A stretch of DNA of 64,000 nucleotides. Origin: an uncultured Chloroflexia bacterium. Its GTDB lineage: Bacteria; Chloroflexota; Limnocylindria; Limnocylindrales; CSP1-4. A program made the translations under genes and the position numbers. Shown here one piece after another: positions 14,633 through 48,679 of the stretch (its first letter is position 1; the number at the start of each line of letters is the position of its first letter). The notes under the pieces were generated by a model. That model was not told the origin of the DNA. It saw only the letters and a list, made by a program, of their open reading frames with translations, and searched no databases. Where the stretch lies: the NCBI GenBank assembly GCA_963833705.1, contig CAWHYQ010000002.1, positions 398,266 through 462,265 of the forward strand. The letters run 5' to 3'.

Positions 14633-15744
14633 CTAGTTGCCGCCCTCCTTGAGCGTGATCGTCCCCTTCGTGAAACCGGCGCCCTTGGTGTCGACCGAGG
14701 TGCCGAGCGCATCGAGCGCCTTCTTGGCCAGGTCCGTTCGAGTCGCGTCGGCCGAGGGCACCGCCTTGAGCACCTTGTAGGTGGTCGCGATCGAGGTCGT
14801 CTGGTCGTACAGGGCCTTGTCGAGCATGCCGATGCCGTTCGGCGACGGCCAGATCAGCGCGTTGATCTCGTTCATCTGCCACGCCTGGTGGCTGGCGCCC
14901 AGCTGCGAGCCCTTGGCGAGGACGATGTCGACGCACTTCTGCGGGTTGTCGCGGCAGTAGATCCAGCCCTTGAAGGTCGCCTGCAGGAACTTCGCGGCGA
15001 CGTCGGCGTTGTTGCCGGTCTTGAGCCACTTGTCGGTGGCGAAGATCTGGTCCTGGAGCATCGCCGTCCCGACCGACGGGTCGTTGAAGTCGACCACGTT
15101 CAGGTCACCGGGCTGGTACAGCGCCCCGGTCTTCGGGTTCTTGGCTTCGAGGACCTGGGCGTACTCGTTGTAGATCATCGCCTGCGCGACGTCGAGGTCT
15201 CCCTTGAGCAGCCCCGACATGTCGAAGTTCTGCTTGATGACGTTCTCCTTGGTCGGGTCGAGCCCGGCCTTGGTCAACCCGGCGAAGAGCTCGGGCTCAT
15301 TGCCACCCAGCCAGCTGCCGATCTTCTTGCCGGCCATGTCCTTGGGGCTCGGTGATGTTGGCGGCCTTGAAGCCGGCCATCCGCGTCCCCGAGCGCTGGA
15401 AGATCTGGGCGATGGAGACCAGATCGGTCCCGCCCTCGCGCGACTGGAGCATGTTCGGCAGCCAGGCGGTGCCGATGTCCGCTCCGCCCGTCGCGACGCA
15501 CCTGGACGTTGTTGATGTTCGGGCCGCCGAGCAGCAGCGAGACGTCGAGCCCGGCGTCCCTGTAGTAGCCCTGGTCGATCGCGGCGTAGTAGCCCGCGAA
15601 CTGCGACTGGGCGACCCATTGGAGCTGGAACTTGACCGGCGTCAACACGGCCAGCGAGGCGCCCCCACCGCTCGAACTGCAGGCCGCGACCAGCAGTACC
15701 ACGGCGGCCATGGCCATCGCCATTGCCTTCCGAGTCACTCTCAT
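14633..15744 (-). pseudogene. NMT1/THI5-like (NitT/TauT-family) ABC substrate-binding lipoprotein, two frameshifts
   Basis: The N-terminus is in ORF 15274..15744 (MRVTRKAMAMAMAAVVLLVAACSS lipobox, ...QLQWVAQSQFAGYYAAIDQGYY...NINNVQV). The middle (VATGGADIGTAWLPNMLQSREGGTDLVSIAQIFQRSGTRMAGFKAANIT) is in a third frame. The C-terminus is in ORF 14633..15820 (SPKDMAGKKIGSWLGGNEPELF...). Breaks lie at about 15499 and about 15352. The length is 2 mod 3. Confidence 0.8.
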
Positions 15745-15831
15745 GTCGATCCTCCTCCAAGGTGTCGACCAGCTCGGCCGGCCGACGTGACATCCTCCCG
15801 GATGACCGATGGTAGGCCACCCGCGTTCACC

Positions 15832-16608
15832 TCATCGCGCCATCTCGCGAGCCATCCGCCACGGCATCACGAGGCGCTCGAGCGCCACCGCGGCCAGGTA
15901 CAACCCGATGCCCATCGCGCATGCGAGCACGATCGCGGCCCACGCCGTCGGGTAGCGGCTGTGGCCCGTTTCGAGCGTGATGTAGATGCCCAGCGAGTAC
16001 AGCGGCCCACCGAAGAACTCCCCGACGACCGCGCCGATCACGCTCAATGTCGTCGCGATCCGGAGGGCCGTGAACCAGTACGGCAACGCGTTCGGGGCGC
16101 GCAACTTGGCCAGGGTCTGCGAGTCGCTGGCCGCATAGGAGGTCAACAGTTCGAGCGCGGCCGGCTCCACGTTCGTCAGCCCGCGGATGGTGTTCACCAT
16201 GACCGGGAAGAACACCATCGCCGCGACGATCGTCATGCGTGGCAGGAGGCTCTCCGGGCCGAACCAGTTGAGCGTGATCGGGGCGAACGCGATGATCGGG
16301 ATGGCGCTCGCGCCGATGGCGATCGGCAGGAGCATCTCTCGCGCGGTCGCCCAGCGGGCGGTGGCGAGACCCGCCAGTGTGCCCAGCGTGACGCCGATGA
16401 TCAACCCGCCGACGGCCTCCGCGCCGGTGAACAGGACGCCCTTGACGAGGGTCGGCCAATCCGACGCAAGGCTCCCCGCGATGACGCTGGGTCGCGGGAT
16501 CAGGAACGACTGGACACCGAGGGCGAGCAGCGTGACCTCCCACAGCACCAGCACCACGACGAACACGATGACGGCCGGCATCCATTCACGGATGGCATCC
16601 CGACTCAC
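15832..16608 (-). CDS. ABC transporter permease (NitT/TauT family)
   Basis: ORF 15832..16608 has six TM segments and a GTGA overlap with the upstream ATPase gene. Confidence 0.85.
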   Translation of the reverse strand: MSRDAIREWMPAVIVFVVVLVLWEVTLLALGVQSFLIPRPSVIAGSLASDWPTLVKGVLFTGAEAVGGLIIGVTLGTLAGLATARWATAREMLLPIAIGASAIPIIAFAPITLNWFGPESLLPRMTIVAAMVFFPVMVNTIRGLTNVEPAALELLTSYAASDSQTLAKLRAPNALPYWFTALRIATTLSVIGAVVGEFFGGPLYSLGIYITLETGHSRYPTAWAAIVLACAMGIGLYLAAVALERLVMPWRMAREMAR

Positions 16609-17464
16609 GCCAGCCCCTCCGCGCGGATCCGCGCGCCGGCCGACGGCCCGAGCCCGTCGTCGGGCGCCTCGTGCTGACGGAGCGCTTCGCGAACCCTCGT
16701 CACGAGCGCGAAGTACGCCTCCGATTCACGCGTCTCGACCGTCCGCCCCGCCGGCAGGTCGATGTCGATGACCTGGTGATCCGCCCCGGCCGAGCCGACA
16801 TGACGACGACGCGGGTCGAGAGGAAGACCGCCTCGGGGATGCTGTGGGTGACGAACACGATGGTCGTGCCGGTGCGCTGCCAGATGTTCATCAGTTCGGC
16901 GTTCATCCGCTCGCGCGTCATCTCGTCGAGCGCGCCGAACGGCTCGTCCATCAACAGCAGCTTGGGGTCGAACGACAGCGCCCGGGCGATGGCCACGCGT
17001 TGCTGCATCCCGCCCGACAGCTCCCACGGGTGCCGCTCGGCGAACGCCTCCAGCTCGACCAGGCGGAGCAGGTCGGTCGAGCGCCGATGCCGCTCATCGG
17101 CCGAGAAGCCCATGATCTCGAGCGGCAACTCGATGTTCTTGGCGATCGTCCGCCAGTCCATCAGGACCGGTGCCTGGAAGACCATGCCGTAGTCGCGGTC
17201 GAGCCGCGCCCGGGCGGCCGGCTTGCCGTTGATCACGACGGTCCCGCTGGTCGGCGGGGTGAGGTCGCCGATCAACCGGAGCAGGGTCGACTTGCCACAA
17301 CCGGACGGCCCGATGAGCGAGACGAACTCGCCCCCCCGGATGGTCAGGTCGACCGATTCCAGGGCCGTGACGGCGCCTGGCCCGGTCCCGAACACCTTGC
17401 CGACCCCGGTCGCCTCGACCACCGCCGGCGCCGCCGCCACGACCGGCGTCTCGTCGGCGGTCAC
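16605..17464 (-). pseudogene. ABC transporter ATP-binding protein (NitT/TauT family), one frameshift
   Basis: The N-terminal 230 aa are in the frame of ORF 16700..17575 (GPSGCGKSTLL, LSGGMQQRVAIARAL, LLMDEPFGALD). The tail (VIDIDLPAGRTVETRESEAYFALVTRVREAL) is in the frame of ORF 16605..17027. The break is at about 16775 and behaves as a 1-base loss. Confidence 0.8.
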
Positions 17465-18411
17465 AGCAGCCCCTCGACCGGCCGATACCGACCGCGCGTG
17501 ACGATCCCTTCGGCCACGTTGATGGCACCGAAGAAGAAGAGCCCGAGGAGTGTGCACATCACGATCGTCGCCCACAACCGCTCGGGTGCGGAGATGTAGT
17601 ACTGGTTGTAGTTGATGATCGCGCTGCCCAGGCCCGAGGCGACCCCGGCCGTCTGCTCACCGATGATGGCCCCGATGATCGACGCGGCCGCCGCCACCCG
17701 GAACCCCGCGAACAGGTACGGCACGGACGTCGGCAACCGCAACTGCAACAGGATCTCGCGACGCGACGCGGCATAGGACCGGAAGAGCTCGATCGCCCGC
17801 GGGTCCACCGCGTTGAGCCCGCGCAGCGACGCGATCGTGACCGGGAAGAACGTCAGGTAGGCCGACACCGCCATGACCGAGGCCCAGTCCGCCTTGATGG
17901 CCACCACGACGATCGGGGCGATGGCGAGGATGGGCACGGTCTGCGAGGCGACGACGTACGGGACGAAGGCGCGCTCAGCGAGGCGCGAATGGACGAACAG
18001 GACGCCAAGCGCGAGACCCAGGGTCGCCCCGATGACGAAACCGGCGAGCGCCTCTGCGAACGTGAAGATCGCCTGGCCGAGGAGGACGAGGCCGAGTGGC
18101 GGTCCCGCGCGCTGGGCCGGGTCGATGAAGGCCCGGATGACATCCCACACGTGGGGCAACGACAGGTCGTCGGCGATCCGCCACGCGAACGGCGGGAAGT
18201 GCTCGTAGTCGATCTGGATCCCGCCGATCGTGGCGTGGATGCGCCACGGATCGCCGGCGAGCCACTTGGTGCCCTCCCACAGGACGGCGAGGCCGACCAG
18301 GACGACGACGAGGCCGATGGCCCGCCGGGTCCTCGACCGACCGGATCGCGGCCCGGTCGCGGCGCGTTGCCGACCGGAGGCCCGGCCGAGGGATCCGCTC
18401 GCGGTCGTCAT
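17461..18411 (-). CDS. ABC transporter permease (NitT/TauT family), second subunit
   Basis: ORF 17461..18411 is hydrophobic and is a paralogue of 15832..16608. It has a GTGA overlap with the ATPase gene. Confidence 0.85.
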   Translation of the reverse strand: MTTASGSLGRASGRQRAATGPRSGRSRTRRAIGLVVVLVGLAVLWEGTKWLAGDPWRIHATIGGIQIDYEHFPPFAWRIADDLSLPHVWDVIRAFIDPAQRAGPPLGLVLLGQAIFTFAEALAGFVIGATLGLALGVLFVHSRLAERAFVPYVVASQTVPILAIAPIVVVAIKADWASVMAVSAYLTFFPVTIASLRGLNAVDPRAIELFRSYAASRREILLQLRLPTSVPYLFAGFRVAAAASIIGAIIGEQTAGVASGLGSAIINYNQYYISAPERLWATIVMCTLLGLFFFGAINVAEGIVTRGRYRPVEGLL

Positions 18412-18442
18412 CGGGTGACGCTCGGAGGGTCGATCTGGTCCG

Positions 18443-19777
18443 TCAGGCGACGGCCTGGTCGGCGATGTCGAGTGCGCGGTCGATGATCTCGAAGCCCTCG
18501 GCCAGTTGCTCGTCCGTGATGCACAGCGGCGGGTTCGTGTGGACCGAGTTGTTGGCGATCATCGTGTACAGGTGGTTGTCCCGCAGGAACTTGCCGATCG
18601 CCTTCATCTCGTCCGAGGTGCCGTTGAACGGGGTGAGTGGCGTCCACGGGTCGTGGCCCCGGACCAGGTCGATGATCCCGAACAGGCCGAGGTTCCGGGT
18701 GGCGCCGACGCTCGGGTGCTTGGCCGCGAGCCGGCGATGGTGCTCGCGCATGATCGGGTCGAGGCGGGCGGCATTCTCGATCAGGCCGTCCTCCTCGTAG
18801 ACGGCGATCGTGGCGAGTGACGCCGCGAGGCTGACCGGGTGGCTGCTGTAGGTCAGCCCGCCATAGAACATGACCGATTCGAACTGTTCGGCGATGCCGT
18901 GTCGCATCGCTACCGCGCCGAGCGGCAGGTACGAACTCGTCAGGCCCTTGGCCATCGTCATCAGGTCCGGCGTGACGTCCCAATGGTCGACCGCGAACCA
19001 TCGGCCCGTCCGGCCGAAACCCGCCATGACCTCGTCGGCGACCATCAGGATGCCGTTCCGATCGCAGATCTCGCGGACACCCGCGATGTACCCGTCGGGC
19101 GGGATCAGGATCCCGTTCGTCCCGACGATCGTCTCGAGGAAGACCGCGGCGATCGTCTTGGCGCCCTCGTAACGGATCACGTCCTCGAGACCCTGGAGGC
19201 TCTCGGCCACGGGACGCGGTTCCGCCTCGCCCCAGCGATGCGTATCCGGGTAGCGGACGACGCCGACGATGCCGGGCTCGTTGGCCCATCGTCGGGGGTC
19301 GCCGGTCAGGGTCATCGCCCCGAGCGTCGCCCCGTGGTAGGCGCGGTAGCGGGCCAGGATCTTGTGCCGGCCGGTGGCGTGGCGGGCCAGCTTGATGGCG
19401 TTCTCGACGGCCTCGGCCCCACCGAGCGTGAAAAAGACCTTGTCCATGTCGCCAGGCAGGATCTCGGCGAGCTTGGCGCCAAGGCGGGCCCGGATCTCGG
19501 TGGCGAAAGCGGGTTGGACGTACTGGAGCTTGAGCGCCTGGGCGGTGATCGCGTCGATGACCCGTCGGTCGCCGTGGCCGATGTTGACCGACATCAGCTG
19601 GCTGTTGAAGTCGAGGATGCGCGTCCCCTCCGGTGTGTACAGGTAGACGCCCTCGGCGTGGTCGATCGCGATCGGGTCGAGCGTGCCCTGGATCGACCAC
19701 GAGAAGAAGGTGTGTTCGCGCGACAGCCGCGCGATCTCCTCGCTGGTCATCGGGCTGGAAGCGGTCGTGATGCCCAT
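18443..19777 (-). CDS. class-III (omega) aminotransferase
   Basis: ORF 18443..19777. FFTLGGAEAVENAIKLAR, LMVADEVMAGFGRTGRWFA and TMAKGLTSSY (PLP lysine) match beta-alanine/taurine:pyruvate-type transaminases. Confidence 0.9.
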   Translation of the reverse strand: MGITTASSPMTSEEIARLSREHTFFSWSIQGTLDPIAIDHAEGVYLYTPEGTRILDFNSQLMSVNIGHGDRRVIDAITAQALKLQYVQPAFATEIRARLGAKLAEILPGDMDKVFFTLGGAEAVENAIKLARHATGRHKILARYRAYHGATLGAMTLTGDPRRWANEPGIVGVVRYPDTHRWGEAEPRPVAESLQGLEDVIRYEGAKTIAAVFLETIVGTNGILIPPDGYIAGVREICDRNGILMVADEVMAGFGRTGRWFAVDHWDVTPDLMTMAKGLTSSYLPLGAVAMRHGIAEQFESVMFYGGLTYSSHPVSLAASLATIAVYEEDGLIENAARLDPIMREHHRRLAAKHPSVGATRNLGLFGIIDLVRGHDPWTPLTPFNGTSDEMKAIGKFLRDNHLYTMIANNSVHTNPPLCITDEQLAEGFEIIDRALDIADQAVA

Positions 19778-19895
19778 CGATCACCTCGGGGCAGGCGCGC
19801 CGGCGCCCGCATCGTCTCGTCGGTCGGCGGCGTCGCGCGCCACCGGTGGGTGGTGATTACAGCACACCAGCGGCGTGTCGGCGACGCCGGTCACG

Positions 19896-21724
19896 TCAGC
19901 GCAGGAGGCGACGGCGGACTTCACCCAGGCTGTCGAGGATGAGGATGATGCCCAGCGCCAGCAACCCGGCGAGGAGCACTTCGCGCAGGTAGGCGACGGC
20001 CAGGATGAGTGTCGACAGCATGGCAAGCACGACCGTGATCCTGAGCACCAGCTCCATCACGTTGCGATCGAAGAACGATTCGATCGCGAGGTACGACCCG
20101 AGCATCACCACGATCGCCAGCGGCGCGGGCAGGATCCGGAACCAGACGATGACCGCGAGCGCTGCGATGAGCAGCCCGACGCTGACCGCTGCCCACGCCT
20201 CACCGAACGCTCGCTGCCGTGTGACCGAGGGCGGCTCGGGTTCCGACGCGTGATGGAGATGGAGCCGTGGGTCATCGAGGTGGCCGGCTCGCAGCGCGGC
20301 CAATCGATCATGGCTGGCGGCGATCGCGGTCCCGAGCTCGACCTCCTGGAGGCGGAGGGCGGTCCGCCGTTCCTCACCCTCATGGAGCTCCACCGCGCGC
20401 GTTTCCCGGTAGTCCGTGAGGCCGGCCGTCGTCCGCACCGCGGCCACCTCGGAATCGAGCTCCGGTAACGAGATGGTGAGGGCCTCGATCTCGGCTGCGA
20501 CGGACGCCCGGGTCGCGGTCAGTTCGGCGACCCGCGTCTCGAGGACCGCGACCGCCTGTGAAGGTGGTGCGATCTTGCCCAGCCCGGCGAACCCGAGCGG
20601 GTCGTGCCACGACTGCCGGACGGAGCCGCTCCGCGTGTACTTGGGACCGGCGGGGGCGCGTTCGCCGGCGAACCGGTCGCCGGTGTCGAGGCCCCACAGC
20701 CCCCGGTAACGGTCGACCCAGCCGTCCAAATCGCCGATGAGGATCGGCGTCCACTCGACGTCGCCACCGGGACCGACGACCTTGCCGTCGCCTCGGGCGT
20801 AGTCGACGAACGGAACGCTGAGGGCACGCCGTGCCCTCGCCGCGAGATCACCCGGGTCGGGCTGGGCGAGCGTGTCACGCCAGACCCGACGCAGGAGGTC
20901 GAGGGGCCCGCGGATGTTCCGCTCGCCCGGGAACGGCAGCAACATGATGTATTCGCCGCGTTCGAGATAGGTCGCGTGGGAGCCCGCGCCCGGGTACACG
21001 ACGGGATGTCCCTCGATGGGTCTCCATGCGCGGGTCGTCCCAGCGCCGCCGAAGGTCGTCGCCCTTCTCGTCGTGCGCCGCCGCGCAGAACCAGGCGGGT
21101 CGCATCGTTCCGTCGTCGAGCGCCTCGAGGACCACGAAGCACTGCTCGAGGTCGGCCTCGTGGTCGTTGGCGCCCTCGAAGGTGGAGCGCCAGTCGTTCA
21201 TGGCGTAGAAGAACATGTAGTGCAGGACGACCCAGCGGCCCTCGCGGACGACCCGACCGTGGTAGACGACCCGCGGGTCGCGAGCCTGGATCTCGTCGTA
21301 GCGTTCCGAGGCCGCAGCTGCGGTACCGCCGGGCACGCGGCCGCGCAACAGCAGCGACGTGACGAGTCCGGCGTCGACGAGCCGCGCCGGCCAGGCCAAC
21401 GCGAGCGAGGCGACCTGGGGCGGAGAACCGCTGATGTTCCGGACGACCCTGCCAGCGACGCAGTTCGAGGGCGGTCAGGGGCTGCGGGACGAATCGAAGG
21501 AACTGGGCCTCGCCGGGCGGCGGATCGCCGACCGCCGCCAACCCGTCGAGATCGAGTTCGCCCGCCGGGATCGTCACGCGCGCCTCGCGCAGGTTCGGTC
21601 CGGTCAGGAGGTCGCACGCCTCGACGTATGAGCCCGCGGCCATCGGAAAGAACAACTCGCCGTCGGTGAACCGGAGGACGGGTTCGTGGCGCCTGAGCAG
21701 ATCCAGGTCCGTCGGGGTGTTCAT
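19896..21724 (-). pseudogene. large conserved hypothetical protein (Vps62/DUF946-like N-terminal region, coiled coil, C-terminal multi-TM), two frameshifts
   Basis: Three consecutive frames read through coherently. The first is MNTPTDLDLLRRHEPVLRFTDGELFFPM...GRLAR (frame of ORF 20519..22159). The second is AWPARLVDAG...VVLHYMFFYAMNDWRSTFEGANDHEADLEQCFVVL...WDDPRMET (ORF 20875..21399). The third is GHPVVYPGAGSHATYLERGEY... to the stop at 19896 (ORF 19896..20999). Breaks lie at about 21400 and about 21015. Confidence 0.6.
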
Positions 21725-22086
21725 GACGTTGCGACCATGCCTCGCAGGGCCAGCCGTACGTCGCGCTGGTTGAGATAGAACACGGCGATGCTGTTGAGGA
21801 GCATCGAGCCGTAGCGCGGCTCGCCGCTCCACCACCAGCCGAGGTCGATGGCGAGGATGATCCCGGACGACACGATCGCGAGGACCCACGCCCATTCCCT
21901 GCGCGCGAGGAGGCCGACCATGACCAGGACGCTCGCGACGAGCAATCCGAGGAGCAAGACCCGAGCGATGAGCTCGAAGTCGGATCCGGGTGGCGGCTGC
22001 GGCAGGGGTGAACCGCTGCGCACCCAGTCCGCGAGGGGGCCGCCCTGGAGATCCACCAGCGCCGCGATGATCGTCACGCTGCGCAA
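21721..22086 (-). CDS. small membrane protein
   Basis: ORF 21721..22086 has 3 hydrophobic segments and its stop overlaps the downstream ATG (ATGA at 21721-21724). There is no recognisable family. Confidence 0.45.
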   Translation of the reverse strand: MRSVTIIAALVDLQGGPLADWVRSGSPLPQPPPGSDFELIARVLLLGLLVASVLVMVGLLARREWAWVLAIVSSGIILAIDLGWWWSGEPRYGSMLLNSIAVFYLNQRDVRLALRGMVATS

Positions 22087-22200
22087 TGCGGTGAGGAGGA
22101 CGATGACGAGGATCCCGAAGGGATATCCGCGACCTGACCTGGCGGGCAGTCTGTGTCACGGGGTCAGGCTAGCAGGGGGCGACCCGCCGAGTAGGCCATC

Positions 22201-23154
22201 TCACCGCGCGGGAGCGACGACGGAGATCGCGCCGGGCACCACGGCGGCCTCCAACCTGGCCGGCGGATGATGGTCGCCGTCCGTCTCGATGGGCTGGGCC
22301 GGTTCGGCCTCGATCGAGACCTCCTGGACGGACCGCCGGATCACGCTTCCCTCGAGGTCGCCCGTCGCGAGCATCAGGGTCGCCGTGCCGTGGAGCGCCG
22401 CCAATGCATCGCTGCCGCCGAGGACGATGAGCTCGAGGCGGCCGTCCGTCGGATCGATCGGCTGACGCGGCCCGATGCGACCCGGGATGAGCTCCCCGGC
22501 GTTGGCCACGAGGGCGAGATGACCGGCGATCTCGATCGTCTCGCCATCGGCAACGATCCGGAACTGCGCGGGCGTGAGGCGCACGAACTCGCGGACCGCC
22601 GCGCCGACATAGGCCCCGAACCGCAGCCGCCGCTTCCATTCCTGTTCGGCGGCGGCCATGATGCGGGCGTCGAGGCCCATCCCGCACGCGACGGTGAAGA
22701 TCCGCTCGTGCGACCCATCCACGACCGGACGGCCATCCGCCAACTCCCACCATCGGGCGAGCCCGAGGTCCAGCCGCAGCGCTCGTCCTGACCGGATCGC
22801 GTCGAGGCCGGAGCTGACGCCACGGATGCCCAGGGCACCAGCGAGGACGTTCCCGGTCCCGGCCGGGATGATGGCCAACGGTGTCTCACGACCGACCAAC
22901 GTGGCAGCCGCCTCGCGGACGGTCCCGTCACCGCCGACGACGACGACCAACGGCGCGTCCGTGGCAGCGAGCAGGGCCTCGCGTGCGGCCTCGACGGAGC
23001 CGTCCTCGATCCGCGGGTCGGTACCGAACCGGCGCCGGATGGCGCCCGATACGGCACGCACCATATCCTCGCGCCGGACCGGGTCGGCCGCCCGCGACGC
23101 TCGCGGGTTGACGATGACGAGCGGTATAGCGGACGTCACGGGGACGGGTGACAT
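22201..23154 (-). CDS. diacylglycerol/lipid kinase family protein (YegS/BmrU-like)
   Basis: ORF 22201..23154 has VVVVGGDGTVREAA and IIPAGTGNVLAGALG motifs. Confidence 0.85.
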   Translation of the reverse strand: MSPVPVTSAIPLVIVNPRASRAADPVRREDMVRAVSGAIRRRFGTDPRIEDGSVEAAREALLAATDAPLVVVVGGDGTVREAAATLVGRETPLAIIPAGTGNVLAGALGIRGVSSGLDAIRSGRALRLDLGLARWWELADGRPVVDGSHERIFTVACGMGLDARIMAAAEQEWKRRLRFGAYVGAAVREFVRLTPAQFRIVADGETIEIAGHLALVANAGELIPGRIGPRQPIDPTDGRLELIVLGGSDALAALHGTATLMLATGDLEGSVIRRSVQEVSIEAEPAQPIETDGDHHPPARLEAAVVPGAISVVAPAR

Positions 23155-23449
23155 CGTCCGATCCTAGGGCCTTCGCCGCCTCGTCGCCTGCACGTTCGGT
23201 CGATCCCGGCTAGACTCCGCCCCGCCGATCGACCCCCAGGCCACATGGGAACCCGGAAAACTCGAACAGCGCCCCGTTCGCACGGCTCCCCGAGCCACCG
23301 TTCCGGCTACGTCCCATCGTGTCGGCACCCTCCTGAACCCGGCCCAGGCCGGTTCGCCATGTCCGTCCGTGCGTGCCCGCGGGGCGTCACCGCCGTCATG
23401 CCTCCGCGTGACGTCCTGGCAGGAAGGAACTCCATTGTTGACACGTCGC

Positions 23450-25745: not shown

Positions 25746-25804
25746 GTTGTCACCTCCCCGTGTAAGCGGCCGGCGACGCGACCGTTCGAGCCTCAGATGC
25801 TACC

Positions 25805-26224
25805 GTGACCGGGACAGCTGTCGAGGAGGCACCCATGGATCACGCGGCCTTCGGCGCCTGGCTCGCGCGCTACGTCGACGCCTGGCGACTCAACGATCCG
25901 ATCGCCATCGGCGACCTGTTCAGCGCCGATGTCCGATACGCGTACGACCCGTTCGAGGAGGCCGTCGTGGGGCGGGCCGCTATCGTCGCGTCCTGGCTGA
26001 CCGACCCCGACGTCCCGGGGTCGTGGGAGGCCGATTACGAGGTCCTCGCTATCGACGGCGACACCTTCGTCGCACACGGTCGGACTCGCTATCTGACCGA
26101 CGATCGATCGGCCGTCGACCGCGAATTCGCCAACATCTTCGTCTGCCGCTTCGACGCCGAAGGCCGTTGTCGGGAGTTCACGGAGTGGTACATGCGGCGC
26201 AGGCCAGAAGCGGTCCCCGACTGA
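25805..26224 (+). CDS. SnoaL/NTF2-like domain protein
   Basis: ORF 25805..26224. FGAWLARYVDAWRLNDPIAIGDLFSADVRY... is typical of the NTF2-like fold. Confidence 0.6.
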   Translation: MTGTAVEEAPMDHAAFGAWLARYVDAWRLNDPIAIGDLFSADVRYAYDPFEEAVVGRAAIVASWLTDPDVPGSWEADYEVLAIDGDTFVAHGRTRYLTDDRSAVDREFANIFVCRFDAEGRCREFTEWYMRRRPEAVPD

Positions 26225-32661: not shown

Positions 32662-34203
<1,542 letters not shown>

Positions 34204-36932: not shown

Positions 36933-36950
36933 CCCTCGCCTGACGGTGCG

Positions 36951-39829
<2,879 letters not shown>

Positions 39830-40042
39830 CGTCGGTGGACTCCTGGAGCGCAGGCGATCACGGTGATCGACCGGCCGCGCGTGACGCTCACCCGAAGGCG
39901 AGACAGGAGTCGGCTTCCGCAGTCGTAGTGCGACGATGCTAGCACGTTGCGAAATGGTTGCGGTGACCCAGAAGTCCGCAACCATGCCGGGACGACTGGC
40001 CGACACGGACTCGGCGGGACCTCCCGCCGTGGCACCATCCGA

Positions 40043-40071
40043 TTGACTCGGGCGCCAGCAGCCCGTAGCAT
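40043..40071 (+). promoter_or_regulatory. candidate promoter TTGACT-17-TAGCAT for the riboswitch transcript
   Basis: TTGACT lies at 40043-40048 and TAGCAT at 40066-40071, about 17 nt upstream of the riboswitch P1 helix. Confidence 0.45.
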
Positions 40072-40087
40072 GCGCTGACAACCGAAG

Positions 40088-40200
40088 AGCTCTTATCAAG
40101 AGTTGGCTGAGGGACCGGCCCGTTGAAGCCACGACAACCTACCGGCGTCGCGTCGGCAAGGTGCCAAGTCCGGGCAGGTCCTCCTGCACGATAAGGGAAC
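40088..40200 (+). promoter_or_regulatory. SAM-I (S-box) riboswitch aptamer
   Basis: GCUCUUAUCAAGAG-UUGGCUGAGGGACCGGCCCGUUGAAGCC-ACGACAACC-...-GGUGCCAAGUCC-GGGCAGGUCCUCCUGCAC-GAUAAGGG matches the conserved S-box blocks (UUAUCAAGAG, GAGGGA, GGCCC.UUGAA.CC, CAACC, GGUGC.AA.UCC, GAUAAG) in the right order. The 5' and 3' ends can form P1. Confidence 0.85.
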
Positions 40201-40283
40201 TCCCTTCGGAGACTCCCCTTTCAGGCCAAGGCGGTCGCCTGCCCACCCGGTCCCGAGGCGCGCTCCACACCCCGGAGACGACC

Positions 40284-41584
40284 ATGGCGACCGACATCCT
40301 GCCCGCCCCGCCCGCAGCCCCGGTGCGCATCCTCGGCATGCGCTGTCGCAACTGCGGCCGCACCGAGCCGATCGGCCTGTCGTACGTGTGTGTCGCATGT
40401 TTCGGGCCGCTCGAGGTCGACTACGACTACGCGGCGATCGGGGCGACCTTGACGCGCGCGGCCATCGCCGGCCGCCCACCGGGGATCTGGCGCTATGCCG
40501 AGCTCCTGCCCGTCGACGCGCGCGCCCGTCCGCGGCCTGCCGGTCGGCTCCACGCCCCTCATCGAGGCCGAACGACTCGCCCCGACGCTCGGCCTCGATC
40601 GCCTCTGGATCAAGGACGACACGCGGAACCCGTCGCTCAGCTTCAAGGACCGCGCGGTCGCGGTCGCCGCGGCCCGCGCCGTGGAGTTCGGGGTGGAGGC
40701 GCTCGCCTGCGCGTCGACCGGCAACCTGGCCGGCGCGACGGCGGCCGCGGCGGCCGCACTTGGTCTGCCGGCCTACGTCTTCATCCCCGCCGACCTCGAA
40801 CCCGCCAAGGTGGACCACGCCCTGGCCTACGGCGCGACCGTCGTCCCGATCGAGGGCACCTACGACGACGTCAACCGGCTCTGTCTCGAGGTCGCCGACG
40901 AGACCGGCTGGGGGTTCGTCAACATCAACCTGCGGCCGTTCTACGCCGAGGGTTCGAAGACGCTGGCCTACGAGATCGCGGAGTCGCTCGGCTGGCGCTC
41001 ACCCGACGTCGTCGTCGCGCCGGTCGCCTCCGGGGCGATGTTCACCCGTGTCGCGCGTGGGTTCGAGGAACTCGTCGAGCTGGGGCTCATCGAGCCGCGG
41101 CCCATCCGCTTCGTCGGCGGCCAGGCTGCGGGCTGCGCACCGGTCGCGACGGCCTGGGCCGCCGGGACCGACGTGATCGACGCCGGTCCGCGAGCCCGAC
41201 ACGATCGTCCGCTCGCTCGCCATCGGCAATCCGGCGGACGGGCAATTCGCGATCGAGCTGGCCAACGCGTCGGGCGGCTCGATCGAGGCGATCGAGGACA
41301 CCGTGACGGCCGAAGCGATCCGCGAGGTCGCCCGCCTCGAGGGGATCTATCCGGAGACCGCCGGCGGCGTCACGCTCGCGGCCACGGCGGCCGCGCGTCG
41401 GCGCGGTGTGATCCGACCCGGCGACGAGGTCGTCGCCCTGCTGACCGGGAATGGGCTCAAGACGCCGGATGCGCGCACCCTGGGTCACGGCGACGGCGTC
41501 GCCTGGCCGGGCCAGCCGGGTCTCGCCCCGGCGATCCGACCGAGCCTGTCGGCGTTCGAGCGCTGGCTCGGTGGCGAGGCATGA
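40284..41584 (+). pseudogene. threonine-synthase-like PLP enzyme with an N-terminal Cys4 zinc ribbon (MetM-like?), two frameshifts
   Basis: ATG at 40284 with a GGAG Shine-Dalgarno. The first frame gives MATDIL...GMRCRNCGRTEPIGLSYVCVACFGPLEVDYDY...LLPVDAR. The second gives PVRGLPVGSTPLIEAERL...NPSLSFKDRAVAVA (PLP lysine)...ASTGNLAGA.... The third gives VREPDTIVRSLAIGNPADG...LLTGNGLKT.... Breaks lie at about 40524 and about 41186, and both are 1-base gains. Confidence 0.8.
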
Positions 41585-41853
41585 GCACGGTCCGCATCCC
41601 GCCCACGCTCAGGGTCGCGACCGGCGGGGCGAAGCAGGTCGAGGTGCCAGGCGGCACGGTCCGCGAGGTGGTGACCGGTCTGGTCGCGGCCTATCCGGCC
41701 CTCGAGTCGCAACTCCTCGCGCCCGACGGGGACCTCAACCGGTTCGTCAACGCGTTCCTGAACGACACGGACGTCCGCCACCTCCAGGCGCTCGACACGC
41801 CCGTCGGCGAGACCGACACCCTCGTCCTCCTGCCGGCGATGGCCGGCGGCTGA
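41581..41853 (+). CDS. MoaD/ThiS-family sulfur-carrier protein ending in Gly-Gly
   Basis: ATG at 41581 overlaps the ThrC-like stop (ATGA). The 90-aa protein is MSTVRIPPTLRVATGGAKQVEVPGGTVREVVTGLVAAYPALESQLL...TDTLVLLPAMAGG. It shows the beta-grasp carrier pattern with a C-terminal GG. Confidence 0.75.
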   Translation: MSTVRIPPTLRVATGGAKQVEVPGGTVREVVTGLVAAYPALESQLLAPDGDLNRFVNAFLNDTDVRHLQALDTPVGETDTLVLLPAMAGG

Positions 41854-42015
41854 CCGACCCCGCGACTGAAACCGTTCGGGGCTAAAGGGCCGCGTCCCCA
41901 GGAATGAAGGGTGCGCCGGGTCGAGAATCACGGCTTTGGTCGATGGCCGGCGAGCGGCCGGCGGCCACCCTGTCGTCAGACGGCCGGAACGGCCGGCGAG
42001 CAGAGGGGGCGACCG

Positions 42016-42213
42016 ATGTCAGCCGCGAAGAGCATGTTCTTCTTGATCAACCACAACCAGGACCGATGGTGGCTCGATGACGACCCGCATCGCCTGCCAT
42101 ACGCCAAGGTCGACGCACCGCCGCTCCCGGACGAACCGCAGCGGGAACGATCGTCGTACGTGAACCGGCTCGCCTTCCGGCTTCGGATCACCATCCGCCC
42201 GTCGGCCGGCTGA
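42016..42213 (+). CDS. small hypothetical protein (65 aa)
   Basis: ATG at 42016 is preceded by GAGGGGG. Third-position GC is high (about 80 %), as in neighbouring genes. There is no recognisable family. Confidence 0.4.
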   Translation: MSAAKSMFFLINHNQDRWWLDDDPHRLPYAKVDAPPLPDEPQRERSSYVNRLAFRLRITIRPSAG

Positions 42214-42216
42214 CCG

Positions 42217-42540
42217 TCAGTCGGTGTGGAAGACCTCGGGCAGGGTCAGCCACCAGGCCCCGGGCGGGCGCTCCGGATACGGATCCTGCATCGCATCGGT
42301 CTGGCTCCACCACGACTGGATGACCGGGTCCGCGGCCATCGCCGCCATGTCCCGGTCGAAGTCGTCGCCGACGTACTCGAAATACGCGAAGAGCTGCTCG
42401 CCGTGCCGATAGATCGAGTAGTTACGGATGTTGGCCGCCTCGATGGCGGCGAGGACGCCCGGCCAGGTTTCGGCGTGGAGGCGCTCGTAGGCGTCGATCG
42501 ACTCGGGCCGAACCCGGATGACCTGTCCGAACCGGCTCAC
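42217..42540 (-). CDS. rhaM: L-rhamnose mutarotase-family protein
   Basis: GTG at 42540 (GTGA overlap with the upstream gene). [56 protein letters not shown]...MQ matches the RhaM family. Confidence 0.85.
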
Positions 42541-43832
42541 GACCACGCGGAACCGCCCGGATAGCGGTATCGGGCGATGGACGCCGGCCGCATCGTGGCG
42601 CTGTAGCCGGGCGCGGTCGGCAGCACGTATCGCCCATCGCGGATGACCACCGGGTCCACGAAATGCTCGTGCAGGTGGTCGACATACTCGATCATCCGCC
42701 CGTCCAGCCGCCCGCTCACGGCGATGTAGTCGAAGGCGGACAGGTGCTGCACGAGCTCGCACAGGCCGACTCCGCCGGCGTGCGGACAGACCGTCACGCC
42801 GAACCGCGCCGCCAGCAGCAGGACTGCGACGACCTCGTTGACGCCACCGAGCCGGCAGGCGTCGATCTGGCAGATGCTCAGTGCATCGGCCGCCAGGAAC
42901 TGCTTGAACATGATCCGGTTATGGACGTGCTCGCCGGTGGCGACCCGGATGGGCGCCACGGCCCGGGCGATCGCCGCGTGACCGAGGATGTCGTCGGGGC
43001 TCGTGGGCTCCTCGATCCAGTACGGGTCGAACGGTGCGAGATGGGTCATCCACTCGATGGCCGTGTCGACATCCCAGCGCTGGTTGGCGTCGACCGCGAG
43101 CATGTGCTCCGGCCCGATCTCGTCGCGGATGATCCGGATCCGTCGGACGTCGTCGTCGACGTCGGCCCCGACCTTCATCTTGAACCGCGTCCAGCCCTCG
43201 GCCAGCGCCTCGCGACAGAGCCGCCGGATCTTGTCGTCGTCGTAGCCCAGCCAGCCGACCGAGGTCGTGTAGGCGGGATACCCGTCACGCAGCAGCTCCG
43301 CCTCGCGTTCGCCTCGACCTGCCACGTTCCGCTCGAGGAGTACGAGCGCGGCGTCCGGGGTCAGGGCGTCGGTGAGGTAGCGGAAGTCGACGAGGCTCAC
43401 GATCTCCGCCGGCGACATGTCGCTCAGGAGCTTCCAGACGGGCACCCCGGCCCGCTTGGCGACCAGATCCCAGGCGGCGTTGACGACGGCCGCCGTCGCG
43501 AGGTGGATGACGCCCTTCTCCGGCCCGATCCAGCGCAGCTGGCTGTCGCCGACCAGGTCCCGCCAGAACCCGCCGAGGTCCGCCGCGAGGCCATCGACGG
43601 ACCGCCCCAAGACGAGTGGACGAAGCGCCTCGACCGCGGCCACCACGATCTCCGTCCCGCGGCCGATCGTGAACGTGAGGCCGTGGCCCTCGTGCCCGTC
43701 GTCCGCGTCGGTGCGCAGGACGACGTACGCGGCGGAGTAGTCCGGGTCCGGGTTCATCGCATCGGATCCGTCGAGCGTCCGCGACGTCGGGAAGCGGATG
43801 TCGACGACATCGAGCCCCGTGATGGTCGGCAT
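42537..43832 (-). CDS. L-fuconate dehydratase-type enolase-superfamily enzyme
   Basis: ATG at 43832 inside ORF 42537..44144. It has [17 protein letters not shown]..., [18 protein letters not shown] and [10 protein letters not shown]. Confidence 0.85.
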
Positions 43833-43834
43833 GG

Positions 43835-44812
43835 TCAGCCCTTGAGCGCGCCGACCAGGATGCCGCGCGTGATGTAGCGCTCGAGCAGGATCGCCATGAC
43901 CACGACCGGCGTGATCATGATCAGGATCAGGACGGACATCGCCCACCACTGCGGGCCGCGTGTCGCGTTCTGGGCGGCGACCTGGAGCGGCATCGTCTGG
44001 GCAGTTCGCGCTGGTCAGCACGAGGGCGATGAGGAACTCGTTCCAGGCGAAGATCAGCACGATCAGGAACGTCGCGACGAGGCCCGGCACCGAGATCGGC
44101 AGCACGATCGAGCGGACGATCCGGTAGACCGACGCGCCGTCCACCGACGGCCGACTCCTCGAGCTCGATCGGCAGCGCCGCGAAGTAGTCGCGCATCAGC
44201 CAGACGACGATGGGCAGGTTGGTCGCGACGTAGGTGATGACCAGCGCGGCGAGGCTGTCGAGCAGGCCGATCTGCTGGAACAGCACGTACATCGGGATGA
44301 CCACCGCGATCGGCGGCAGGATCCGCTGCGAGATCATCCAGAACGCGATGTCGCTGTTGCCGAGGGCGCGCTTGAACCGTCGCCCGATCGTCTGGGCGAG
44401 GATGACGAAGACGCCCAGCGCCGCGGCGCCGGCGATCGGCAACGGCGCACCCAGACGCCATCGCGACCAGCGTGAAGGCGAGGCAGCCGATGAACAGGCC
44501 GATGATCCCGAACCGTGGGCTGTACGTGAAGCGCACCAGCGCGTAGGCCGCGAACGACCCGAGGACGAGCGCGATGACCGCGCTCGACGATGCCGACGAT
44601 CACGGTGTTGACGTACGGTCGCAGCGTGTCGTTGCCCGAGCTCGACGAGGATGTAGCGCCAGGCGTCGAGGGTCGGCTGGAAGTCGACGAAGGGGATGTA
44701 GAACGGTCCCTTGTCCACCTGGTACGGCCGTCTTGAACGAGGTGACGACGAGCCAGTAGATCGGCAGCAGGACGACGAGCGCCCAGCCGCACAGGAGCGC
44801 GAACGCGCCCGA
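43835..44812 (-). pseudogene. carbohydrate ABC transporter permease (MalG-like), multiple frameshifts
   Basis: Coherent peptide pieces are scattered over all three minus frames. They include GAFALLCGWALVVLLPIYWLVVTSFKTA, VDKGPFYIPFVDFQPTLDAWRYILVELG, NDTLRPYVNTVIVGIV and RFTYSPRFGIIGLFIGCLAFTLVAM. Further pieces are [113 protein letters not shown] and a tail ending ...GALKG with the stop at 43835. There are at least 5 breaks, and the 5' boundary is approximate. Confidence 0.7.
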
Positions 44813-44818
44813 GCTTGG

Positions 44819-46083
44819 CTAGCGGGTGCAGTCGAGCGGCGACCGGCGCCGGAACGGGTTCCTCACGAGCGTCGCGGCGCGCCCGTGCTCACGTCGCCGC
44901 TCCGCGTCGCGGGCGAGGCTGACGTACGCGGTCGCGACGAGGGTGACGACGATCAGCAGCAGGTAGGCCACCGCCGCCGATCTGCCGAGGTTGAGCGAGT
45001 TCCAGTCGATGTAGGCCTGGAGCGACATCGACTGGGTCGCCGTGCCCGGACCGCCGCCGAGCAGGATGTTGGGCATGTCGATGATCTTGAAGCCCTCGAT
45101 GAGCCGGATGAGCACGATCGTCGTCACGACCGGCAGGATGGCCGGGAGCGTGATGTTGAGGAAGCTCTGCCAGCGGCTGGCGCCGTCGACGACCGCGGCC
45201 TCGCGCACCTCCTGGTCGAGGCTCTCGAGCGCCGCCAGCAGGACGATGAACACGAACGGCGTCCACTGCCACGTGTCGCCGATGATGACGGCGACGCGTG
45301 CCGCCCACGGATCGGTCACCCACGAGAAGTTGCGCAGTCCGAGGCCGACCCAGAGCGGCTCGAGCGGCCCCTTGGACGTGTCGGTCATCATCAGGAACAT
45401 GTAGCCGACGCCGACCGGGGTGATCGTCAGCGGGAATCAGGAAGGCGACCCGGAAGAAGCGCCGCACAGGGACCGCCTGGACGCACAGGATCGCGAGTCC
45501 GAGGCCGAGCAGCGAGCTGCACGCCGATCCCGGCGAACACGAAGATCATCGTGACGATCAGGGCGCCGGGCCGCCCGCCGCTGCTGGCCAGCGCCCCCAC
45601 GAGCAGCCACAGGAAGCCGACGAATACGATCCCGGCCATCAGCCGGAGGGCCAGACCGAACGGCCCGAACCGCCCGCCGCGGACGGCCCGTGTGAACGCC
45701 CAGACCGTGCCGCCGATCCCGACCGACGAGGATCAGCCAGCCGAGCGGGGACGGCGTCTTCAGGACGCCCGAGGAAGTGGCTCTGTTCGGTGCCGAACAG
45801 CAGCTGGTAGTAGTTCGAGAGGCCGATGAACGTGAGGTCGACGCCGCCCTTGCGGAAGACCAGCTTCGAGACGGACAGCGCGACCGATGCGACGAGCGGG
45901 AAGATCGACAGGAACAGGATGACGATGACGGTCGGCCAGATGAAGACCCAGCGGGCCGCGCCGTCCGAACGCCACGCGCCGAGGGTGTCGACCGCTCGGC
46001 GCGTGGCCCGGGCTGTCGAGGGCCGGTCCGTCCTGGACCGGCCCTCCGGGCTCGGTGTCGATGACGTTATCGCTGGACGCCAA
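44819..46083 (-). pseudogene. carbohydrate ABC transporter permease (MalF-like), multiple frameshifts
   Basis: The pieces are ARWVFIWPTVIVILFLSIFPLVASVALSVSKLVFRKGGVDLTFIGLSNYYQLLFGTEQSHFLG, VLKTPSPLGWLILV, LMAGIVFVGFLWLLVGALASSGGRPGALIVTMIFVFAGIGV and AFLIP/LTITPVGVGYMFLMMTDTSKGPLEPLW...DGASRWQSFLNITLPAILPVV.... There are at least 3-4 breaks, and both boundaries are approximate. Confidence 0.7.
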
Positions 46084-47665
46084 GGCTGGCGACGTAGGCA
46101 GCGAGTTGCTTGTCCTTGCCGGCCTCGTTGGTGATCCCGTTCCAGCCATCGGCGATCGCCTGTTCGGTGCCGGCCTCGTCGAGCTCGCCGGCGAGGTACT
46201 GGGCGACGGCGGTGTCGAGGACGTCCTGTTCGTAGCGCTTGGTCAGCGGGATGCGCAGATCGAGCACCATGTTGGGACTCTGGAGGCTGTTCTTGATGGC
46301 GTCAAGGTAGTTGGTCGCTGCGGCTTCGCTGAGTCCGGCGGCCTCCCACGGCGCGAGGTCTGCTGAAGTGTGAGGTGCGATACGGGTTGTAGCCGGTCTT
46401 GCCGAGGGTCACGTCCGTCTCGGATTGCGCCGGCGCGCTCATGTACGAGAGGAAGGCGTAGGCGGCGTCCTGCTGCGGCTTGCGGCGCGGCCGCGTTGAC
46501 CGCCCCGGACCAGCCGCCGAACGAGGCGAACGGAGCGTAGTTGACGCCGTCGACCGCCTTGGGGCAGGTCGTCGCGTCGCACGGCGACGAGCTTGCCGGT
46601 CGTGCGATCGAGGACCTCCTTCCAGCCCGGGGTGATGGTCGCGCCGGTCTTGTCCTGCGCGTAGGTGCCGGGCGCCAGCGTGCCGATGTCGCCCCAGTCC
46701 ATGGTCAGGGCGCAGCGACCGGTCGTGAACAGGCCGCGGCTGCCGCCGACGTCCATGTTCAGCTCGTCGGGCGGACCGACTGTCCTTCGTGGCCTTGTAC
46801 AGCTGGAGGGCCTTGGTCATGGCCTCGTTCGGGCCGAACAGCGGCGTCATGTCCTTCGTGTCGAAGAAGGCGCCCTGGTTCGTGCCCTGGCTCTGGAGCA
46901 GGCCGGCGGCGATCGAGATGATCCACCAGTAGCTCTGGGCGCCCTTCTTCTTGGCGATGCACGAGCCGTAGTCGGGCTCGCCGTCGCCGTTGAGGTCCTG
47001 GCCCTGGTACTTCTTCGCGATGGTCAGGTAGTCGTCCCATGTCGCCGGCGGCTTGAGGCCGTCCTTGGTCAGGAGGTCGCTGCGGTAATAGACCATGTGG
47101 AAGTCACCGTCGAGCGGGATGGTGTAGACCTTGCCGTCATAGGTCGCGTTGAAATCGCGGAAGAACGGACCGATGTCCTGCCACTTGAGGCTCGCGTCGT
47201 CGTTGACCTTGTCGGTCAGGTCGAGCAGGTAGCCCGGGCCGACGAAGTCGCCAAGCCACTGCGGATTGAAGACGTACGCGTCGAAGCTGTTCGTCGCCGA
47301 TGCCGCGTCGAGCAGCGCCTTGTCGTAGATCGTCTGGAACCCGACGGCGATGACGTTGACGTGCGCGCCGGTGAGCTTCTCGAAATCGGGGGCGCGCCGC
47401 TGGAGCGGCTCGGCGACCTGCGGACCGTTGAAGGTGAGCAGGTTGACGTTGATTCCCTTGAACGCCTGGGACGGCGGCCGGCGTCGGAGCCGCCGCTGCG
47501 GATGCCGAGGCGGCCGCCGTCGCAGCCGGCGGATGGCGTAGCCTGCCGGCGGCGGGCGCTGGGTGGCGTACTCGCGGCGGGCGACGGGCTCGTTGTTGCC
47601 GAGCCACAACCCGCCATCACGAGTATCAAGCCAACCACTGGCGCGATGGATCTGAACCGCGACAC
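46067..47665 (-). pseudogene. carbohydrate ABC transporter substrate-binding lipoprotein, multiple frameshifts
   Basis: GTG at 47665 follows GGAGGAGGA. The lipobox is VGLILVMAGCGS. The long middle piece is in ORF 46302..47708 (FKGINVNLLTFNGPQVAEPL...DGEPDYGSCIAKKKGAQSYWWIISIAAGLLQSQG...). A further piece is in ORF 46439..46756 (GRCALTMDWGDIGTLAPGTYAQDKTGATITPGWKEVLDRTTGKLV). The C-terminus is in ORF 46067..46270. There are at least 5 breaks. Confidence 0.75.
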
Positions 47666-47811
47666 TGGTGGTCCTCCTCCTCTTGACCTCGCCAGGCCCG
47701 TCCAGCATACTGAACGACTGGCGGTAGGTTGAACAGGATACGGACCGGAGCCGCCAAAGTCAATATGTTGTACGCAGTCCATCCTGCTGTCCGCTCGTTC
47801 GGACCGTTCGG

Positions 47812-48679
47812 ATGACCGTGGTGGAGGTCCGGCGGATGGCCGCTCGCGAGACGCCGATCGAAACCGAGCCGACGGCCGGCACCATCCGGTCGGGTGACGA
47901 CGCCGGTCGCGACGCGGAGTCGCTGACGCCCGCCGTCACCCGCGCCGCACTCATCCTGGACGTCCTGGCCGAGAGCGGTGGCGACCCGGTGGGTCCGAGC
48001 GAGCTGGCTCGACGGCTCGGGCTTGCCCAAGTCGTCCATCGCCAACATCTGCGGTGCGCTGGCCGACGCCGGGCTCGTCCGGCGCGTGTCAACGGGCTTC
48101 GCGCTCGGCCGCCGTCTCGCCGAGCTGGGCGGCGCCTACCTCGCGACGGTCGACCAGGTCCAGGAGTTCTACGAGGCATCGCGCAACCTGCCGGCGGGCT
48201 CGGAAGAGACGGTCCAGTTCGCGGTCCTCGACGGGTTGGAGGTCACCTATCTCGCCCGACACGACGGACGCCAGCCCGTGCAGCTGACCTCGGGGATCGG
48301 CCGCCGGCTGCCGGCCTTCTCGACGGCGACCGGCAAGGCGGCGCTCGCATCGCTGCCGTCCGAGGAGCTGGGACGTCGGCTGGCCGGCCTGACGACGCTG
48401 CCGCGGGCCACGCGGAAGGCACATGCCACGGTCGACGAGCTGCTGGCGGACCTCGAGGAGATCCGACTGCGCGGGTATGCGATCGATGACGAGCAGACCA
48501 TGGAAGGCGTCGTCTGCTACGGCGTCATGGTCCCGAGCCGGCAACCCGGCGGCGAAGGCCCATGTGGGGCGAGCATCACGCTGCTCAAGGTCCGGGCCAC
48601 GGCCGAACGGGTACCCGCCCTCATCGCCGACCTGCACTGGCTCGCCGCGGAGCTATCCGACCCCATCCGGCGCGACTGA
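47812..48679 (+). pseudogene. IclR-family transcriptional regulator, one frameshift
   Basis: The N-terminal wHTH start (VTRAALILDVLAESGGDPVGPSELARRLGL) is in ORF 47812..48489. It continues as PKSSIANICGALADAGLVRRV... plus the effector domain in ORF 47978..48679. There is one extra base at about 48025. Confidence 0.8.

Follow-up and report, generated by a model that had tools for sequence, protein, structure and literature searches.

Thirty-three single-base frame breaks interrupt genes in the 64,000-nt stretch of DNA analysed here (the window), and on sequence evidence we consider it about 90% probable that they arose as consensus errors when long reads of a metagenome were assembled, and that the organism itself does not carry them. 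A sequence-only reading of the same DNA had favoured local consensus or assembly error over pseudogenisation, and this preference is now supported by a 30:3 excess of extra over missing bases, the lack of other decay, the conservation of the corrected proteins, the state of sister contigs and the comparison available at one site near 22127.

The breaks were placed by frameshift-aware protein-to-DNA alignment against orthologues, drawn from 170 related loci plus 120 pckA proteins, together with three-frame comparison. Viterbi segmentation of the window by codon usage provided a reference-free view of frame changes. Each break is a single-base indel at which both ORF halves match one orthologue contiguously and the covering references are unanimous. 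Comparison with orthologous loci had been suggested in the sequence-only reading, and at every site the extra base is missing from the orthologues. All positions listed in that reading were recovered within a few bases, and one further site, at ~22127, was inferred. Its observation that the breaks behave mostly as +1 gains also held: the breaks comprise 30 extra and 3 missing bases (the latter at 16773, 23730 and ~44829), an excess that departs from 1:1 with p ~7e-7 (one-sided binomial, hand arithmetic).

The clustering that had been described was likewise recovered. Breaks are confined to two intervals of 8-10 kb each, 15350-23730 and 37706-48025, within which they are spaced at about one per 230-1300 nt. 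Outside both intervals, ~26 kb have orthologue coverage; if breaks were as frequent there as in the sparser cluster, ~22 would be expected, and none backed by all covering references was observed, so that the search for breaks in regions previously scored as intact left the clustering in place. In stretches without references, every Viterbi segment terminates at a stop codon. Within the second interval, 41182-44003 (2.8 kb) is break-free though it adjoins the densest stretch.

Thirteen genes carry breaks. In the first interval, an NMT1/THI5-type solute-binding protein gene (14636-15750, minus strand) has extra bases at 15350-15352 and 15498-15499, each called as +1 in 6/6 references; Pfam NMT1 covers both sites in the corrected protein, which is 89% identical to its counterpart in L091. 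The ABC transporter ATPase gene at 16608-17431 (minus strand) lacks one base at 16770-16776 (−1 in 7/7 references), and its corrected product matches Pfam ABC_tran. A conserved protein of ~608 aa with no assigned function and no Pfam match (19899-21724, minus strand) is interrupted by extra bases at 21018-21020 (6/6 references) and 21387-21390 (4/4). It has more than 100 intact homologues of 607-609 aa, the length found in most JGI (short-read) matches, and matches from long ENA contigs measure 174-546 aa. At the far end of the interval, an NlpC/P60 + SH3 gene (23450-24210, plus strand) has a missing base at 23727-23733 (−1 in 5/5 references), a site that Pfam NLPC_P60 covers in the corrected protein.

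The inferred site lies in the gene for a 145-aa membrane protein (21721-22159, minus strand), with the extra base near 22126-22128. Counted between the same two codons, GTG and TGA, this gene measures 439 nt in the window, out of frame, and it is called as 438 nt in Logan contigs. Those contigs, of 2313 and 2311 nt from runs ERR15459708 and ERR12036786, encode a DAGK protein 100% identical to that of the window beside the 145-aa gene, a comparison based on gene coordinates only. That in two assemblies with an identical DAGK the neighbour is called one base shorter suggests an error at ~22127. The N-terminus of the L091 orthologue, RSRYPLG, fits the removal of one base at this point. Exact look-ups of ten reconstructed variants of the neighbouring Logan proteins, with and without the extra base, returned no match either way.

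In the second interval, malate dehydrogenase (mdh, 36954-37884, minus strand) has an extra base at 37706, called as +1 in 4/4 references; in the corrected protein, residues 7-145 match Pfam Ldh_1_N and cover the site, and identity to L161 and L162 is 90%. Between mdh and pckA lies a small conserved membrane ORF (38047-38220, plus strand) for which a possible break at ~38120 had been noted. That break is real: the 55-aa L161 orthologue aligns over two frames of the window, placing a +1 at ~38131. ATP-dependent PEP carboxykinase (pckA, 38237-39829, minus strand) has extra bases at 38395, 38756-38758 and 39417. The alignments of five intact orthologues of 526-528 aa run from residue 1 to residues 523-526, nearly the whole protein, and need exactly three +1 shifts but contain no stops, and the joined frames are 82-89% identical to at least 120 pckA proteins among the matches listed. 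The two extra bases in a gene for a ThrC-like PLP enzyme (40284-41581, plus strand), at 40518-40522 and 41179-41182, are both demanded by two full-length 431-aa short-read references (L165, L166), with which L161 and L162 concur. An IclR-type regulator (47812-48676, plus strand) has an extra base within 48018-48025, +1 in 7/7 references.

The densest stretch is a sugar ABC operon, in whose three genes at least 13 breaks had been reported and 18 were found (17 gains and 1 loss of a base) in 3.7 kb, or ~5 times the density elsewhere. Permease 2 (43838-44866, minus strand) has extra bases at 44003, 44147-44148, 44454, 44588, 44636-44637, 44728 and ~44810 and a missing base at ~44829. Six main events are agreed by one set of seven references and by two further references, and the −1/+1 pair at 44829/44810 comes from three-frame translation against orthologue N-termini; a single TAG, at 44819, sits in the 19-nt out-of-frame stretch of this pair. 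For permease 1 (44909-46116, minus strand), four extra bases are called by 7/7 references (45433-45434, 45511-45512, 45717-45718 and 45769-45770) and a fifth, at ~46010, by L005, L021 and L163. The solute-binding protein (46070-47603, minus strand) has four that are called by 6/6 references (46358-46360, 46476-46482, 46582-46585 and 46782-46787) and one at ~47472 that is seen with L008, L011 and L021; residues 36-367 of the corrected protein match Pfam SBP_bac_1 and cover three of the events (~46787, 46582 and 46482).

Once the breaks are removed all affected genes are full length, among them mdh, pckA, the ThrC-like and IclR genes, the two ABC systems and the 608-aa protein. As the earlier reading had stated, the corrected frames of the affected genes contain no in-frame stops, and orthologue alignments show no multi-base deletions in them. 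The corrected proteins are 74-91% identical to their orthologues, compared with 62-94% for unbroken neighbours against the same loci; on this measure the corrected proteins are as conserved as their intact neighbours.

Among the 26 extra bases that could be placed, none falls in a run of at least 4 nt, although the affected intervals contain 121 such runs; run lengths at the extra bases are 1-3 nt. This is unlike the classic nanopore homopolymer error and, like the tight clustering with its break-free 2.8 kb, counts against the error reading. No motif or methylation site was significantly enriched around the insertions after multiple testing, and the break sites contain no slippery heptamer, homopolymer, repeat tract or shared motif. 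The earlier remark that the extra bases usually have a C/G context is true but uninformative in a sequence of 70% G+C where no motif is enriched. Base composition was rejected as a cause of the clustering, the affected intervals being ordinary in this respect (0.67-0.72 G+C). Polishing in ten-kb chunks, the Medaka default, was considered as another cause; the second cluster, which spans 10.3 kb, does not fit a single chunk. The window, with ~70% G+C overall, derives from an uncultured, Limnocylindrales-like soil bacterium (Chloroflexota), and exact protein matches place it on an ENA/NCBI contig of 540,383 nt.

Breaks of the same kind recur in related assemblies. The sister contigs L161 and L162, ENA records of 98 and 331 kb with Flye-style names (contig_NNNN), have six and five robust breaks, respectively, in ~11-12 kb, and an MFD MAG locus, L003, has one. 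All 12 are +1, none is in a long homopolymer, and their positions differ from those in the window. The gene calls of L162 include split and fused genes, as expected from frame breaks. Four short-read contigs (L091, L107, L155, L081) have no breaks in 9-15 kb each, and three others (L106, L123, L156) have at most one. The same error type occurs in other, probably long-read, assemblies of the clade and is uncommon in its short-read assemblies. In a chimeric query of corrected segments for same-strain proteins, 608-aa homologues dominated the matches (best, 94% identity), and a second such query over the break sites gave no 100% match.

The closest genomes are long-read MAGs of the Microflora Danica, for which Nanopore reads went through metaFlye and a single Medaka round, without short-read polishing, and whose authors report coding density lost to errors at low coverage (PMC12313526). 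R10.4 consensus is near-finished only at ~40x coverage (PMC9262707). The window probably comes from a similar pipeline, Nanopore-only and of Flye + Medaka type without short-read polishing. Read support would then have been locally poor in ~15.3-23.7 kb and 37.7-48.0 kb, possible causes being lower depth, a pile-up of reads from co-occurring strains, or sequence that stayed at draft quality. The consensus in these stretches would retain a spurious base every 230-1300 nt or so, in nearly every case as a single-base insertion, and the affected genes would be intact in the organism itself. Fragmentation of ORFs by indels in long-read assemblies is what the IDEEL test was designed to reveal (cited in PMC9262707). 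The window resembles nanopore and PacBio examples in that single-base indels split conserved genes with no other decay, and in that the defect recurs in sister assemblies of the same type and not in most short-read ones. It differs from the classic form in that its extra bases lie in runs of 1-3 nt instead of long homopolymers, and its breaks are almost all insertions, grouped in two 8-10 kb patches instead of evenly spread.

The main biological alternative is genuine recent pseudogenisation, in which mdh, pckA, the ThrC-like enzyme, two ABC importers and other genes have been lost, for example in a local mutator episode. The breaks are truly present in the deposited sequence, genome reduction typically claims transporters and regulators early, and frameshifted metabolic and transport genes beside intact ones recall reductive decay in Mycobacterium leprae and recently host-restricted symbionts; the argument from sibling assemblies against such loss is, moreover, indirect. 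Yet the bacterial indel spectrum is usually deletion-biased, the reverse of the 30:3 found here, and decay of the M. leprae type mixes deletions, nonsense changes and raised non-synonymous change, none of which is seen in the window. A gene would be dead after its first break, and up to 8 breaks in one 1-kb gene without stops, deletions or excess divergence argue against this history, as does the apparent absence of the extra base at ~22127 from two assemblies whose neighbouring protein is identical. Like breaks occur elsewhere in Flye-named sister contigs, but most short-read contigs have none and the others few. That housekeeping genes (mdh, pckA) are hit favours consensus error, and we regard pseudogenisation throughout as very unlikely. 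The same low odds apply to a mixed case in which most breaks are errors and genuine decay into a pseudogene cluster is confined to the sugar ABC operon (43.8-47.6 kb), a caveat raised in the earlier reading. The ~5-fold higher density would fit, and the operon falls within a ~10-kb segment missing from L161 and L162, which makes it accessory and potentially dispensable. However, 17 of its 18 breaks are +1 changes of the type found in pckA and mdh, and the remaining one is a missing base with its partner extra base 19 nt away. Once corrected, the solute-binding protein and both permeases are full length, stop-free and 74-84% identical to close short-read orthologues, and the adjoining dehydratase and mutarotase genes of the same pathway are intact.

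Slightly fainter still is the prospect that the extra bases are real products of a very recent, localised, insertion-biased process that acted on two ~10-kb patches and inactivated about a dozen genes before other decay set in; a possible source would be error-prone patching, during repair or replication restart, in which single G/C bases are added outside homopolymers. We give least credence to recoding, by which real extra bases would be bypassed through programmed ribosomal frameshifting, transcriptional slippage or RNA editing. All that speaks for it is that conserved frames resume right after each break, and a one-base frame change with a full-length product encoded is indeed what prfB (+1), dnaX (−1) and IS transposases show. 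Unlike these systems, the sites in the window have neither a slippery heptamer, homopolymer or common motif nor a conserved shift, since the orthologues are without the extra base at all sites, and up to 8 events fall in one gene and many per gene in unrelated genes. Base-deleting RNA editing is not known in bacteria. Phase-variable contingency loci are also turned off, reversibly, by single-unit indels, but no site in the window has the homopolymer or repeat tract of such loci.

Taken as consensus errors, the breaks are a matter of data quality and not of biology. In an annotation of this contig, mdh, pckA, the ThrC-like and IclR genes and the genes of two ABC importers would be miscalled as split or as pseudogenes, and the sister contigs, if annotated naively, would be misread in similar ways. 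For curators of long-read MAGs, the relevant feature is that the errors are nearly all single-base insertions outside homopolymers. Since these errors are gathered in 8-10 kb patches, coding density, IDEEL-type scores and other genome-wide averages may appear sound even where parts of the sequence are seriously faulty.

Several candidate breaks were rejected. Apparent frameshifts at 4360-4474 are artefacts of antisense shadow ORFs, as are many plus-strand events opposite minus-strand genes in this 70% G+C DNA, and the ABC-2 permease ORF with a possible break at 6795 ends normally. Singletons at 52468, 54211, 57001 and 57133, each called by 1/2 references, were put down to the error-prone loci L161, L162 and L126. 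A break suspected at ~63110 in a SufD/Rieske gene (62761-63999, minus strand) also fell away: Viterbi segmentation gives a single reading frame, and SUFBD_core (33-265) and Rieske (309-391) domains share one ORF. Relatives read through the junction at 56-90% identity and a 553-aa full fusion exists; on these alignments, SufD-Rieske is a natural fusion.

Because plain ORF lists are useless at the G+C content of this window (68–74%), we located frame breaks by combining a codon model with orthologue alignment. The model was trained on long ORFs and applied in a seven-state Viterbi segmentation, and every coding segment was checked for a stop codon at its end. Orthologue proteins were aligned to the window by a dynamic programme permitting one-base insertions and deletions, with references (numbered L loci below) drawn from the surroundings of four genes: the dehydratase gene (80 genome loci), the aminotransferase gene (80 metagenome loci), pckA (2 loci) and the mutarotase gene (8 short-read contigs). 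An event was accepted only when every reference spanning the site required it. The nearest protein relatives came from uncultured Chloroflexota with the label Chloroflexia or Candidatus Limnocylindrales, mainly from long-read MAGs of Microflora Danica (MFD) and contigs of soil metagenomes.

A sequence-only reading had listed at least 25 clustered single-base frameshifts, and all positions listed were recovered to within a few bases. The final sum was 30 insertions and 3 deletions. In the first cluster, alignment placed extra bases at 15350, 15498, 21018 and 21388 and missing bases at 16773 and 23730; a further insertion at ~22127 was inferred from gene coordinates in Logan assemblies. In the second, insertions fell in mdh (37706), a conserved 55-aa membrane ORF (~38131), pckA (38395, 38757 and 39417), a ThrC-like gene (40521 and 41180, confirmed by two 431-aa references from short-read contigs) and the IclR gene (48019). 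Within the three sugar-ABC genes there are 17 insertions and a single deletion. That deletion, at 44829, and the insertion at 44810 compensate each other; the sole TAG sits in the 19-nt out-of-frame stretch between them.

The clustering that had been proposed was borne out. Approximately 26 kb with orthologue references outside both intervals (15350–23730 and 37706–48025) yielded no event backed by all references, and in reference-free regions a stop codon closes every Viterbi segment. The sugar operon averages ~1 break per 230 nt and the rest of the clusters ~1 per 1.3 kb, against <1 per 26 kb beyond the clusters; a 2.8 kb stretch free of breaks (41182–44003) is flanked by dense parts. Two sets of candidates were rejected: at 6795 a gene simply ends normally, and the apparent events at 4360–4474 arose where antisense shadow ORFs had served as references. 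A break suspected at ~63110 also proved not to be one. SufD core and Rieske [2Fe-2S] domains share one frame in a single ORF at 62761–63999 (−), close relatives are likewise continuous and read through the junction at 56–90% identity, and the complete fusion is known as a 553-aa protein. SufD stops at this junction in many other organisms, where the Rieske protein, of ~125 aa, is separate.

Removal of the breaks restored every affected gene to full length. Corrected pckA aligned from residue 1 to 523–526 with five intact orthologues of 526–528 aa, and the corrected ThrC-like protein over residues 1–429 of 431. Pfam domains span break sites in the corrected NMT1 binding protein, NlpC/P60, mdh and sugar-binding proteins, and the corrected frames contain no stops or multi-base deletions. 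Identity to orthologues was 74–91%, inside the 62–94% range of intact neighbours.

For 26 insertions whose position could be narrowed, the run length at the candidate base was 1 nt in 15, 2 nt in 6 and 3 nt in 5. None fell in a run of ≥4 nt, though the affected intervals hold 121 such runs, and no convincing k-mer enrichment was found around the insertions. At 15498 and 39417 the window reads GC, and at 41181 it reads CG; orthologues have C or G at these places. Several insertions, these three among them, may be two alternative wobble bases retained in tandem; such C/G alternation is frequent in a 70% G+C genome. Either local loss of read depth or a pile-up of reads from co-occurring strains could produce both the clustering and the non-homopolymer insertions.

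The site at ~22127 offers a comparison with a seemingly very close strain. In Logan assemblies of two runs, ERR15459708 and ERR12036786, the DAGK encoded by the upstream neighbour gene is identical to the 317-aa product in the window. Their next gene starts 42 nt downstream, is 438 nt long and overlaps its successor by 4 nt. The window has the same GTG (22159) and the same ATGA (21724–21721), but they are separated by 439 nt and do not share a frame, so the Logan assemblies are one base shorter. Removing one base at 22126–22128 gives an N-terminus resembling that of the L091 orthologue. These gene coordinates hint that the Logan strain lacks the extra base.

Related loci were put through the same frameshift scan. 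Two long ENA contigs, L161 (contig_7915, 98 kb) and L162 (contig_10435, 331 kb), showed 6 and 5 robust breaks, respectively, in 11–12 kb, and L003, an MFD MAG locus, showed one. All 12 are +1 insertions, none in a long homopolymer. Those in L161 lie at 2029, 4351, 7090, 7196, 19047 and 19984 and those in L162 at 2016, 6814, 8102, 14964 and 18696 (own coordinates). The breaks in these two contigs leave Cys_Met_Meta_PP, Aldedh, S-methyl_trans and PALP/ThiS genes split or fused, and the L162 gene calls contain matching split and fused genes. Within the same clade, the four short-read contigs L091, L107, L155 and L081 had no breaks in 9–15 kb each, and three further ones had at most one each. Short-read references are not error-free at very low depth, since L163, at 3.9x coverage, has one break at ~2160–2270 in permease 2, which is split into 312 + 34 aa. 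In one homologue search, the ~608-aa protein encoded at 19899–21724 (−) was 607–609 aa long in most JGI matches; among the matches of a second search, sequences on long ENA contigs measured 174–546 aa. For the MFD long-read catalogue, nanopore reads were assembled with metaFlye and polished in a single Medaka round, and short reads were not used for polishing. The authors of the catalogue describe a loss of coding density, related to errors, in MAGs of lower coverage (PMC12313526). In work by the same group, the consensus from R10.4 data was near-finished only from about 40-fold coverage (PMC9262707).

We conclude, with a probability of about 0.9, that the frame breaks are consensus errors rather than pseudogenisation, as the sequence-only reading had favoured. 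The 30:3 bias toward insertions argues for this, as does the involvement of housekeeping genes. No other sign of decay accompanies the breaks, not even where one gene has as many as eight, and sister contigs with Flye-style names share the defect while most short-read contigs of the clade are free of it. Real decay of the whole gene set is highly improbable. Decay confined to the sugar operon would fit the high break density there and is just as improbable. Recoding, in which the shifts would be read through, is the least credible explanation. As an assembly artefact the breaks are of little biological interest; they are a useful warning when annotating the source contig and its relatives.

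Several loci of the window were also noted. The ~608-aa protein lacks Pfam domains, is hydrophobic in its C-terminal third and matches >100 Limnocylindrales-like metagenome sequences, mainly of 607–609 aa. The genes at 14636–19777 (−) encode an NMT1-type binding protein, two permeases and an ABC ATPase, followed by an aminotransferase with the JGI name taurine--2-oxoglutarate transaminase; this content suggests a cluster for taurine or sulfonate uptake and use. A 55–60-aa membrane ORF between mdh and pckA (38047–38220, +) is kept and called as a gene in L161; L162 lacks it, and mdh and pckA are 30 nt apart there. At 40284–41850 (+), the ThrC-like PLP enzyme carries a Cys-rich extension at its N-terminus, and a ThiS-like protein of 90 aa comes directly after it. 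The pair resembles sulfur-carrier-dependent biosynthetic pairs and is kept in L161–L170. L161 and L162, syntenic in other respects, lack the ~10 kb at 41900–51600 (a small ORF, rhamnose mutarotase, enolase-superfamily dehydratase, sugar ABC system, IclR, amidohydrolase and further genes), whose gene order recurs in other Limnocylindrales loci (L002–L008 and L163–L170).
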